NCBI GenBank assembly: GCA_051294375.1
Contig: CM119267.1
Location: 751,601 to 815,600, forward strand
From: Paraspadella gotoi
Taxonomy: Eukaryota > Animalia > Chaetognatha
Length of the DNA stretch: 64,000 nucleotides
Reading direction: 5' to 3'
Made by a program: the position numbers and the translations under genes
Shown here: piece by piece, positions 13,576 to 50,664 of the stretch
How positions within the stretch are numbered: the first letter of the stretch is position 1
Layout: every line of letters starts with the position of its first letter
Notes under the pieces: model-generated
What the model saw: only the letters and a program-made list of their open reading frames with translations
Databases searched by the model: none
Told to the model about the DNA's origin: nothing

Positions 13576-13861
13576 TGTTATAAAAAAAGTATTAATAAAA
13601 AAAAAATTTTAACTAAAAAAAAAATTCCTGGATGAATGATTTTGCGCTCCTCTGGTTGGTGACGAAAGTCAATAAAAATCCTAAACAACATTTAGACTAA
13701 CGATAACAATGATTATGAGAGAGAGACGATTTAAGACTAGTTTTGGAATCAAGGTGAGAGAGAGAGAGAGATATATGAAGGGAATGTGAAATTAAGGAAG
13801 CGAATAAATGGAAGCGATCGACGCCGTCCTCTTTCGTAAAAGGAGGCGCCCTCGTCCCCCG

Positions 13862-16359
13862 TCACGTGGGAGAGGGCGTGGCTATGATCGGACGCGCGGA
13901 ACCGTTGAATTCTGACGCTGTCGAGGAAAGAGACGCCGACCGAAGAGGAGAACTGAGATTGTTGGCGCCGGAAGACGACGACGACGACGATTTCAAAGTC
14001 AGCATCGACCACAAATGTTTCAAAGAATCACCGTAAGATGTCAGCATCGTCGACGTAGAGAAAACGCCGCCTAGTGAGAGAAAACTCGTCACATAAAACA
14101 AAAGGGCAAACGTTCGCGACTCGTGTAAGGGATTCTCCTCTTTACCGATGATGCCGCAGATTCTGACGAGCAGCTGCAGGAGGGAAGGCCACGTCTCCGT
14201 GACGACGACTTTGAAGCTGGCAAAGTCGTACTTGACGAAAATGCCTGGGACGCCGTGGGATCCGCGATCGTGATCGATCGCTCGATTCTGTTCCGTCACC
14301 GCGTATTGGAAAGTGTCGAGGTGGGCGTGGGATGTGGAGACGCGAGTGGGGACAACTGGAATCAACCCTTTTCAATTATGTCATAATGGAACTAAAAAAT
14401 TGAGCAACAATAGTTATTGGTTTTGAAGGACGTTTAACTTGACGTTCGTAAGGCAAGGGTGATTTCATAATTTAATAACATGAAAAAAAACCAAGCAAGC
14501 TTTCATTCAATACTTAAGAGTTCATTTTGTGATATGAGCTCCAATTCTACCTTTTAAAAAATACTGATAGACGATCTGATTGTGATCCGTGACTCTGAGA
14601 TCCCCGTCCATCGGATTGATCTTCCCCGGGGATCGAGGCCCGAAAGAAAATTCGTCGATCCGATGGGAGAAGTTGTAAGCGGCGTCTCCGATCATAATCG
14701 CCAAGTGGGCGTGGCCCCGGGGAAAAGGGATCGAACGTCCCGCCGTCACGTGAAAGTTGCCCGCCACTTTACTGATCTCGACGGAACCGTGATACCTTTT
14801 ATGGGTAAACGATCAGATTATTATTACATTCGAAATGAATATATATTGATGGGAATAATTTCCATTTTTACGTCAACTATTTATCAAAAAAATATTCTTT
14901 AAAAAGAAATTAGTACGTAGAACCAATCTAATATTATCTAATCATTAAATAAATAAGCTATCTTGCCCCTGACATTAGATGCGATGGTTTAAGGCCTTCA
15001 TCACTCTCACAAGATAATGACGAAGCAGGACCCTCACACGAAGGACCCTCACACGAAGGACCTCACACGAAGCAGGACCCTCACACAGATTCGTGTATTC
15101 ACTCACAGAGTACCTGGCTTCCCTATTGATGAAGCGATATAATATTTCAAAGAATAAAACGATCACTTCCTTAATTAATTTAGAAGACATTTCACTCAGA
15201 GAAACCAAAGTATCTTATACTTATAGGAGGGAGATTATGTGTGGCGGTGAGCAAGAGTTACCCAAGGCTTCCTTACCGACAAGCATCGGGATTCCGGTCT
15301 GGCACGTCCTCTCTCGGCGGCATGCTTTGACTCATGTATCCCGATTTCCAGAGGAAGTGATGCAGCGCGTGATACTCAGATTTGATTCGATGGTTCACGC
15401 TTTCCATCATCTCTTGGTAGATGCGCTGACGAGGACTCAGCTCGAAAAAAGCCGGCTCTTCCTCAATGCTGCCAGCTTTGGGACGAACATGGGATGAAAT
15501 AAGATAGGAAATGTACCAACCATGACTGAAAACATTTGTTTTCAACACGAATTTCCCTCATTTATTTATTTCTTCTTTAGTACATCCATTTCATTAAATT
15601 AAATATTCTCCGATCGGTCAAGGTAAAATAAGCCCGAATACAAAATAAATTCACCCGAGATCCACGCATTGTGCTTGTTACTGACATCAAGGACATCCGC
15701 ACCCAGATAACCGCAGGGCATCGCCACAGTGATATCAAGATTTAACAAAACAGTTTCGTTCTTGTCCAGATCAACCTATAACAGGCGGATGCAATGAGTG
15801 AATGAATGAATTAATTAATGTCCTTTAAAGCGGCCAACCTTGTAGTCGAAATTGAGTTCTGAGTCAAAATAAAGTCGAACTTCGGACAAAACTAAAACTG
15901 CGATGAGAATGAAAGTCGCCACAGAAAGAGTTCCTCGACCTGGAGATCGATATAGTGGGCCACATCAATGTCACTTTATACACTACGGTTTATATACATA
16001 CTCTACGGTTTTAATACATACATGTATATAAGCAGTCCCTGAGCTTCGGATCAGGCTGTAACGTGTTACAGACAGATTAACTGCTTGGCGGCCACTGGGC
16101 TAGAACCCCGGACCTTTTGGGTTTTTGAGGCGAATGACTTGCCTCCTGCACCAATGGCCGCTGATTTTAGTCCACCATAATATATAATAATCACGAAACA
16201 TTTGAGGGACAATTGAGAGACCCCAAGTCTACTATAACATGACATGACATGACAGGGGGATCAATCACCTGTCGTTGACGGCTCCTTGTAAGTCTCAGGC
16301 ACCTTTGGAAACGCATCCAACTCTTTGATCGTCGCCACAACCTTACGTCGTCTCAACAT
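13862..16359 (-). CDS. ERGIC2: ER-Golgi intermediate compartment protein 2 (Erv41 family), multi-exon
   Basis: MLRRRKVVATIKELDAFPKVPE start; GNFHVTAGRSIPFPRGHAHL; NFSHRIDEFSFG; HGVPGIFVKYD; LLVRICGIIGG. Confidence 0.92.
14950..15190. repeat. Dispersed intronic repeat family with variable internal minisatellite (other copies ~55912-56410 and ~59175-59520)
   Basis: AGCTATCTTGCCCCTGAC..GGTTTAAGGCCT..CATCACTCT..CAAGATAATGAC is shared (reverse complement) with ~55912-56410; AGAGTAC..G.CTTCCCTAT..ATGAAG is shared with both other loci. Confidence 0.75.
16035..16161 (-). mobile_element. tRNA-derived SINE (tRNA-like head 16161-16086) in ERGIC2 intron 1
   Basis: Acceptor stem GCGGCCA/TGGCCGC followed by CA; A box TGGTGCAGGAGG; B box GGTTCTAGCC; no canonical anticodon arm. 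The body CTGTAACAC..GTTACAGCCTGA..GAAGCTC recurs at ~11660-11695. Confidence 0.65.
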
Positions 16360-16702
16360 TTTTTATTCCTGAGTCTAAGACGTGCGACGCTATGTTTCAG
16401 CGCAACAAAGTGCGCAAGCGATAGAGAGAGAGACGTTATTAACCTATCATGTCTAACAACACTTTCGTTGTCCAAATTCTTAGAAAGAAAACAGAAAACG
16501 ACTCGCATTACATTTTCACTTTTATTCAACTTTTATTTCTCAAAATAAACATAATATTAACTAAAGATGGCAAAAAATGTAAATTAACCAAACATCAGAA
16601 GAAAAAAGAAAAAGGCCTAAGTTCGAAAATCAAAGTTCGAAGTTGACATCTCGGGATCGACGATCGATTTCAGCGGCAGCACGGCTATTCAGCGGCTCTG
16701 CT

Positions 16703-50200: not shown

Positions 50201-50390
50201 GAGGGAGGGGCGAGTATTTAATGGGATCTCCGTCGCTTTTAACGGGATCTCCGTTTTCCGAGAAATCGAGTTTTTTCGTGGCGAAGAAAAATCTTTTCGC
50301 ATTGTGGAAGAGGAAGAAGAAGAGGGGAAGAGAAAGAGTCGCCAGCGCCGCCAAGCGAGTCTTCAAAAAAGTAGATGTTTCCATTTTCAT
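44240..50390 (-). CDS. EXD2: Exonuclease 3'-5' domain-containing protein 2, multi-exon
   Basis: N-terminal TM segment; [87 protein letters not shown]. Confidence 0.94.
47825..48498 (-). CDS. RPS23: 40S ribosomal protein S23 (uS12), two coding exons, nested on the same strand in an EXD2 intron
   Basis: [44 protein letters not shown] spliced to [27 protein letters not shown]-stop. Confidence 0.97.
48729..48757 (-). promoter_or_regulatory. Putative TCT/5'TOP start and short non-coding first exon of RPS23
   Basis: Minus strand CTCTCTCTTTGTTAGGCGGTCCGCAAG|GTTTG with a matching acceptor AATTCAG| at ~48540 upstream of the ATG. Confidence 0.5.
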
Positions 50391-50664
50391 GTCTCGACTC
50401 TTTTTTGGGAATGAGGAGCAAAAAATACGATCAATTCGTCAATAATAATAAAAAACACAAGAGAAAAAAATTGGATAAAACATTTTTGTGAAATCTTGTA
50501 AAGAGTCGATATGAGTCGAACGCAAAAAACAATTTAACGCTAGAGGGAGAGATAAGTGAACTAAGATGGACGCGGAATGGAATGAACCGGATTGAACCAG
50601 AATCGAATAGCGATGGTTGAGATCTCAGAACCCGACGGAAGAGGCGCTCCATCCCCACCGAGTA

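Follow-up and report, generated by a model that had tools for sequence, protein, structure and literature searches.

The window analysed here, a stretch of animal DNA 64 kb in length, contains 14 genes that lie head to tail, all on the minus strand. In the direction of that strand, they are a PHD-finger gene, a SETDB1-like, an EXD2-like and a GCLM-like gene, RETREG, an RRM-MYND-Tudor gene (hereafter the Tudor gene), SNRPG, RPS24, NXT1, ARL14EP, FKBP8, RPL37, ERGIC2 and KNTC1. An EXD2 intron houses a further gene, RPS23, in the same orientation. The chain spans more than 60 kb and has introns of up to 8.7 kb. The reading is open from ATG to stop codon in 12 gene models, that of RETREG among them after a donor scan; an ATG at 40410 that had been considered as a gene start was rejected, as it belongs to an internal RETREG exon. 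Pfam matches support RPL37, RPS23, RPS24, NTF2, LSM, Tudor, RETREG, ARF7EP_C and the ERGIC domain, as well as 3'-5' exonuclease, MBD/Pre-SET/SET and TPR domains and, weakly, KNTC1_N. No Pfam family matched GCLM, for which we obtained one weak hit to an aldo-keto reductase (E = 0.011). The names GCLM, FKBP8, SETDB1 and EXD2 are putative orthologue assignments that come from the initial annotation or from general knowledge.

Most of the genes, which are of housekeeping type, are closely packed, with stop-to-ATG spacers of 151–366 bp in 10 of 12 cases; the two wide spacers lie between RETREG and the Tudor gene (1068 bp) and between FKBP8 and RPL37 (774 bp). The argument of the initial annotation that the spacers leave little room for a promoter and a non-coding exon is not applicable to the Tudor gene and RPL37. 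The two wide spacers suggest a division into the following three blocks:

39298..62286, minus strand: upstream block of SETDB1-like, EXD2-like (with nested RPS23), GCLM-like and RETREG; spacers of 274, 151 and 310 bp; Pfam support; putatively co-transcribed
18094..38229, minus strand: candidate six-gene operon Tudor-SNRPG-RPS24-NXT1-ARL14EP-FKBP8; spacers of 322, 366, 191, 254 and 171 bp; Pfam support; putatively co-transcribed
13575..17319, minus strand: downstream block of RPL37, ERGIC2 and the start of KNTC1; spacers of 343 and 286 bp

U-rich 3' splice acceptors without a partner donor had been proposed just upstream of ten of the start codons. All ten motifs are present on the minus strand, 9–71 nt upstream of the ATG. 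We scored them, together with alternatives nearby, using an acceptor matrix trained on 66 cis acceptors of the window; the GT-AG introns that supplied these acceptors and 54 donors were picked by eye and then verified. The sites are as follows:

44147..44168, minus strand: candidate acceptor of the GCLM-like gene; first base 44152 (44146 for the second AG); score 7.0; no donor
38253..38268, minus strand: candidate acceptor of the Tudor gene; first exon base 38252; score 7.9
34605..34620, minus strand: SNRPG acceptor, a U tract plus CAG; exon starting at 34604, 71 nt from the ATG at 34533; leader junction seen
33664..33680, minus strand: RPS24 candidate acceptor; exon starting at 33663, 37 nt from the ATG at 33626; score 7.5
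First exon base 33750, minus strand: second RPS24 candidate acceptor; score 6.4
23947..23962, minus strand: NXT1 candidate acceptor; first exon base 23946; score 9.1; no donor upstream
23002..23072, minus strand: ARL14EP candidate acceptors; first bases 23001 (as initially annotated, 4.5) and 23057 (stronger, 11.6)
21786..21860, minus strand: FKBP8 candidate acceptors; first bases 21785 (as initially annotated, 3.8) and 21844 (stronger, 10.0)
17369..17385, minus strand: RPL37 candidate acceptor; first exon base 17368; score 6.7; closes the 774-bp spacer
16369..16385, minus strand: ERGIC2 candidate acceptor; exon starting at 16368, 9 nt from the ATG; score 7.9; shuffle P = 0.023
13613..13665, minus strand: KNTC1 candidate acceptors; first bases 13612 (as initially annotated, 2.5) and the alternatives 13627 and 13651 (5.9 and 6.1)

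With a score of 13.5, the AG of SNRPG is the highest of all scored AGs. The two AGs originally pointed out before ERGIC2 give first exon bases 16374 and 16368, and two upstream ATGs come after the stronger FKBP8 site at 21844. As had been observed for several of the start codons, their context is rich in A: the base at −3 is A in 10 of 14 ATGs, and positions −3 to −1 are AAA in 5 of 14.

As a set, the sites stand out from their surroundings. A site scoring at least 4.9 occurs within 5–100 nt of the ATG in 10 of 14 genes, compared with 72 of 240 intron-interior windows, a control that includes the two nested genes (P = 0.002; Fisher's test). The corresponding figure for windows behind stop codons is 4 of 13, and this control is the weakest, with four stop positions off by 1–23 nt and an overlap with the test window in short spacers. 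The summed best score is 98.3, against 68.7 ± 10.5 in dinucleotide shuffles, and is reached by 2–3 of 2000 shuffles (33 of 2000 without SNRPG). For 7 of 10 genes, a named site ranks among the highest 4% when set against 1221 AGs from intron interiors (KNTC1, FKBP8 and ARL14EP being the exceptions), and the tracts have a T content of 60% at candidate sites versus 45% at cis acceptors. The number of sites over the threshold lacks significance, being matched or exceeded in 272 of 2000 shuffles; the four genes unnamed by the initial annotation show no enrichment (435 of 2000 shuffles), and taken singly only SNRPG and ERGIC2 reach P < 0.05 against shuffles, the other 8 of the 10 named genes falling short. 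The caveat originally attached to the motifs, that YAG after T-runs is common in AT-rich DNA, therefore holds site by site.

RNA evidence comes from run X1, which contains 48% of the sampled words of 12000–21999 and which we took to derive from RNA, as GT-AG introns are missing from its contigs. The X1 contigs were aligned over 33000–39000, a range that includes 3 of the 10 named sites (SNRPG, RPS24 and the Tudor gene). One contig (record 6; 561 nt, depth 639) matches 33836–34055, 34199–34317 and 34485–34604 with 0 mismatches and omits both SNRPG introns. The match ends at 34604, exactly beside the AG at 34606–34605, and 26 foreign letters lie beyond it, which on the gene's strand read TCTGTATTTTCTAGAGCTTGTTTAAA. 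This piece is absent from the 64-kb window, where its best match has 8 mismatches, and an exact search with 23 letters of the loose end gave 0 matches in metagenome contigs. The junction has the features used by SLIDR-type detection of spliced leaders (SLs), as given in the portion of PMC7986045 available to us: 5' letters without an alignment upstream of the gene, an AG at the alignment edge and no cis donor. A search of the window for an SL RNA gene by a leader-end-plus-GT motif gave 1 match with a mismatch, which is below chance, and an Rfam search of the window gave 0 matches.

The X1 contig at RPS24 (record 5) confirms that the first intron, 8.66 kb long, is spliced in cis. It departs from the genome at 33612, 14 nt inside the coding sequence and short of the named AG, and its 29 loose letters are neither found in the window nor leader-like; this end may be a chimera, a paralogue or a cryptic splice. 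The expectation that RNA would diverge from the genome exactly at the AG is thus borne out by the SNRPG contig and not by that of RPS24. Among the matches listed, no X1 contig lies over the Tudor gene. In run X2, a relative of SNRPG has 79 letters without a match at its 5' end, and no contig of run X3 aligned over 33000–39000.

The foreign end of the SNRPG transcript resembles known chaetognath leaders. Its last 9–10 letters are common to the published SL2, SL3 and SL4, and it ends in TTGTTTAAA, as do 25 of the 26 leaders of Table 3 in PMC2481426 (chance at a fixed place, 2.5 × 10−5). The 26-letter piece is not itself among those 26 leaders, and its 5' part aligns with them loosely. Published leaders start with GGAAGC and are 33–36 nt in length, according to the part of PMC2481426 at hand; the contig retains 26 letters, with the 5' end missing. 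The SNRPG leader form lies outside the 2008 table and may already be published in PMC12460157.

Related organisms provide a second line of evidence. The closest relatives of RPS23, RPS24 and RPL37 (89–99% identity) are metatranscriptome proteins from environmental collections, some of which have been translated through their 5' UTR. The searches yielded no protein from a named chaetognath, and the assignment to this phylum is based on the leaders. A leader-like starting peptide, matching a reading frame of the Table 3 leaders of PMC2481426, was found in 13 of the 339 proteins compared, and all 13 are 89–98% identical to the RPS23, RPS24 or RPL37 of the window. P0008 begins with KLKFFYLLN, which SL1 encodes in frame 2 (9 of 9 residues identical); P0155 has EAKFYYFTCL, compared with EANFYYFTCL of SL3.2; and the starting peptide of P0274, a relative of RPL37, resembles SL2. 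EAKNIYFTCL precedes both RPS23 (P0006 and P0071) and RPS24 (P0152, P0157 and P0161). In this organism, a leader is seen on one gene, SNRPG. A further 22 extensions starting with MG, including that of P0160 on a close relative, have no leader match. Among the best 80 of 147 loci in a search for RPS24 loci (best identity, 86%), none is close and none has the leader motif.

The SNRPG contig joins a foreign leader exactly at an acceptor-like AG, and the AGs are therefore likely to be the SL sites known from this phylum. For the AG sites before the start codons as a whole, it is very likely that they are the SL trans-splice acceptors of a chaetognath, with the reading of the other sites extended from SNRPG. 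We regard it as extremely likely that a spliced leader is added at SNRPG, and leader addition is likely at most of the other named sites. The initial proposal of SL acceptors is supported by one junction, seen at SNRPG in one contig of one run, and by leaders on RPS24, RPL37 and RPS23 of relatives, and we infer the remaining nine sites. SL trans-splicing and operons are already known from chaetognaths, through a report of 2008 and a genome-wide map of 2025.

In the mechanism that we propose, the spliceosome would attach a leader of ~33–36 nt, ending in TTGTTTAAA, to the AG. The leader would come from a separate SL RNA gene and would give each mRNA a capped 5' end, with a resulting 5' UTR of 10–110 nt and an A-rich start context. 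Genes with spacers of 150–370 bp would be transcribed as one precursor, which would be cut at the poly(A) site of the upstream gene and re-capped ~100 nt downstream. The two wide spacers (1068 and 774 bp) are where promoters probably lie, and the result would be three operons. Judging from the spacing, we consider polycistronic transcription of the gene blocks to be moderately probable.

The interval between the Tudor gene and SNRPG illustrates this spacing, with 251 nt from the Tudor stop codon to the SNRPG acceptor, including the 3' UTR:

34607..34698, minus strand: U-rich stretch of ~90 nt from the AATAAA of the Tudor gene (34698–34693) to the SNRPG acceptor; likely intercistronic region, with a putative role

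The Tudor-SNRPG-RPS24 segment agrees with the layout by which chaetognath operons have been defined (at least two genes on the same strand less than 250 bp apart, at least one of them with a leader; PMC12460157, in the text available). It is possible, although we think it unlikely, that SL trans-splicing is real and the genes are nevertheless transcribed singly, each from its own compact promoter and with a short outron, in place of a polycistronic precursor. In the accessible part of PMC12460157, 10,197 of the 21,072 genes of Paraspadella gotoi are trans-spliced and only 18% are in operons, which favours single transcription, as do the spacers of 774 and 1068 bp and the finding that no contig crosses two genes among the matches listed for 33000–39000. 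The short intervals argue the other way. The SNRPG transcript extends at least 157 nt beyond its stop codon, so that at most ~170 nt remain to the RPS24 AG; some 90 nt separate the AATAAA of the Tudor gene from the SNRPG AG; and the GCLM acceptor follows the EXD2 stop codon by 87 nt, the corresponding distance for FKBP8, NXT1 and ARL14EP being 136–196 nt. Transcription in blocks with SL addition remains the reading that we prefer. Its most far-reaching form, in which the whole 14-gene chain from the PHD gene to KNTC1 is one SL-resolved transcription unit and RPS23 is trans-spliced out of the EXD2 intron, is improbable. If true, such a unit would exceed the maximum of nine genes given for chaetognaths in the available text of PMC12460157, and trans-splicing of RPS23 would compete with cis-splicing of its host, EXD2.

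That the AGs instead end ordinary 5' UTR introns, cis-spliced to short non-coding first exons, is a plausible reading at the Tudor gene and at ERGIC2 and very improbable as a general account. A possible donor at 38465 (score 7.3) would give the Tudor gene an intron of 213 nt, and its spacer is roomy enough for a promoter; a possible weak donor at 16443 (score 5.5) would give ERGIC2 an intron of 75 nt. Donors scoring at least 4.6 are present upstream of ERGIC2, RPS24 and the Tudor gene (3 of 10 spacers versus 51 of 86 intron windows) and are lacking in the other 7 of 10 spacers, that of SNRPG among them (versus 35 of 86 intron windows). The description of the acceptors as unpaired is accordingly correct for seven and questionable for those three. 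Even at RPS24, the donor falls in the SNRPG 3' UTR, which the contig reads straight through. The 5' piece of SNRPG is not in the window, and a cis exon would therefore have to lie more than 29 kb away, beyond seven or more genes. The weakest explanation, that these are chance YAGs after T runs in AT-rich spacers and that the loose end of SNRPG is an assembly chimera, fits the T content of the spacers (36–48%), the 8 of 10 genes that are not significant singly and the unexplained foreign end in X1 at RPS24, and may apply to individual weak sites, for example that of KNTC1 at 13612, but is highly improbable overall, given that the set-level enrichment holds against composition-preserving shuffles and that a chimera would need to hit the best AG and to end like a chaetognath leader.

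What the locus adds to SL trans-splicing in chaetognaths is a map of acceptor candidates and one leader junction with a form outside the 2008 table. The nested, same-strand RPS23 in a 14-gene chain is a place in which to test the choice between cis- and trans-splicing. More generally, a real RNA-processing signature was recognised from raw DNA.

In the SL2-type operons of Caenorhabditis elegans, a poly(A) signal is followed by ~100 nt of U-rich sequence and then an unpaired acceptor, and the sequence here has the same layout of poly(A) signal, U-rich spacer and unpaired acceptor. The leaders of nematodes and chaetognaths are unrelated in sequence, and unlike the situation with nematode SL2, no operon-specific leader is reported for chaetognaths in the available parts of PMC2481426 and PMC12460157, the latter giving three leaders for P. 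gotoi, none of them operon-specific. The same portion of PMC12460157 defines operons by less than 250 bp between genes, reports nine genes in the longest P. gotoi operon and finds housekeeping, ribosomal and germline genes enriched; unlike that maximum, the same-strand chain here has 14 genes, with two wider gaps. In Spadella cephaloptera, 36-nt leaders are present on 30% of nuclear expressed sequence tags, and RPS14 and PCNA form an operon with 3 bases between poly(A) site and acceptor (PMC2481426, in the part available), in contrast to the ~90 nt from poly(A) signal to acceptor at Tudor-SNRPG. Chaetognath SL genes sit in the 5S cluster, according to the accessible text of PMC2566580. As in S. 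cephaloptera and Flaccisagitta enflata, in the portions of PMC2481426 and PMC2566580 at hand, the leader ends in TTGTTTAAA and not in AG, ribosomal-protein genes are probably trans-spliced, and genes on the same strand are separated by very short spacers, as in the RPS14-PCNA operon.

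Splice-site scores given here come from matrices built from the window's own cis splice sites. The main features are as follows.

Features of the window
47825-48498, minus strand: RPS23, 143 aa, one intron
33750-33760, minus strand: second acceptor-like site before RPS24, score 6.4
25620-27677, plus strand: intronless ORF of 685 aa, antisense, within the 8.66-kb first intron of RPS24
10640-11330 and 56960-57190, in introns: interspersed GC-rich repeat, about 240 nt long, one end of which is tRNA-like
4950-6890, 59210-59400 and 60800-61110: tandem minisatellites within intronic sequence of KNTC1 and the SETDB1-like gene

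Comparison with the window shows that the RPS24 contig of the RNA-derived run X1 has 29 foreign letters attached at 33612, within the coding sequence and in frame, and that an internal AG adjoins this junction. The second site before RPS24 lies at approximately the expected end of the SNRPG contig, if the 76 unaligned letters of that contig are colinear; its position beside this putative end recalls the 3-base gap of the published RPS14–PCNA operon. The environmental protein P0162 (672 aa predicted) joins PIN/EST1 domains to an RPS24 that matches that of the window at 93%, a fusion that is probably a gene call spanning two closely spaced genes of a relative.

RPS23 is enclosed by intron 2 of EXD2 (49575-47140), on the same strand as its host. 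The acceptor-like site closest to it, at 48539, is weak (score 3.7), with a stronger one at 48740 (8.5); translated 5′ extensions of related proteins show that leaders are present on the RPS23 transcripts of relatives. A 119-nt intron is possible in the spacer ahead of EXD2 (50658-50540, minus strand), where a strong donor (8.3) directly past the stop codon of the SETDB1-like gene could pair with an acceptor that is also strong (10.9, first base 50539). Among the cis acceptors of the window, 9 of 66 lack a pyrimidine at −3, and the last three bases of several cis introns are AAG or GAG (46090, 49794, 15475, 14795 and 7122).

The antisense ORF has a Cys-rich start, a coiled-coil-like C-terminal half, no Pfam match and weak ankyrin-like look-alikes in Atlas, under the Atlas recognition level. 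The GC-rich repeat, which by eye appears SINE-like, has at least three intronic copies, which sit within copies of another repeat, and the minisatellite units measure about 20 nt (containing TTTTCCTCTT, with assembly gaps), about 28 nt and about 40 nt. Across the whole window, CpG observed/expected is 1.25 and CpG is thus not depleted, in agreement with the absence of gene-body methylation reported for P. gotoi in PMC12460157.
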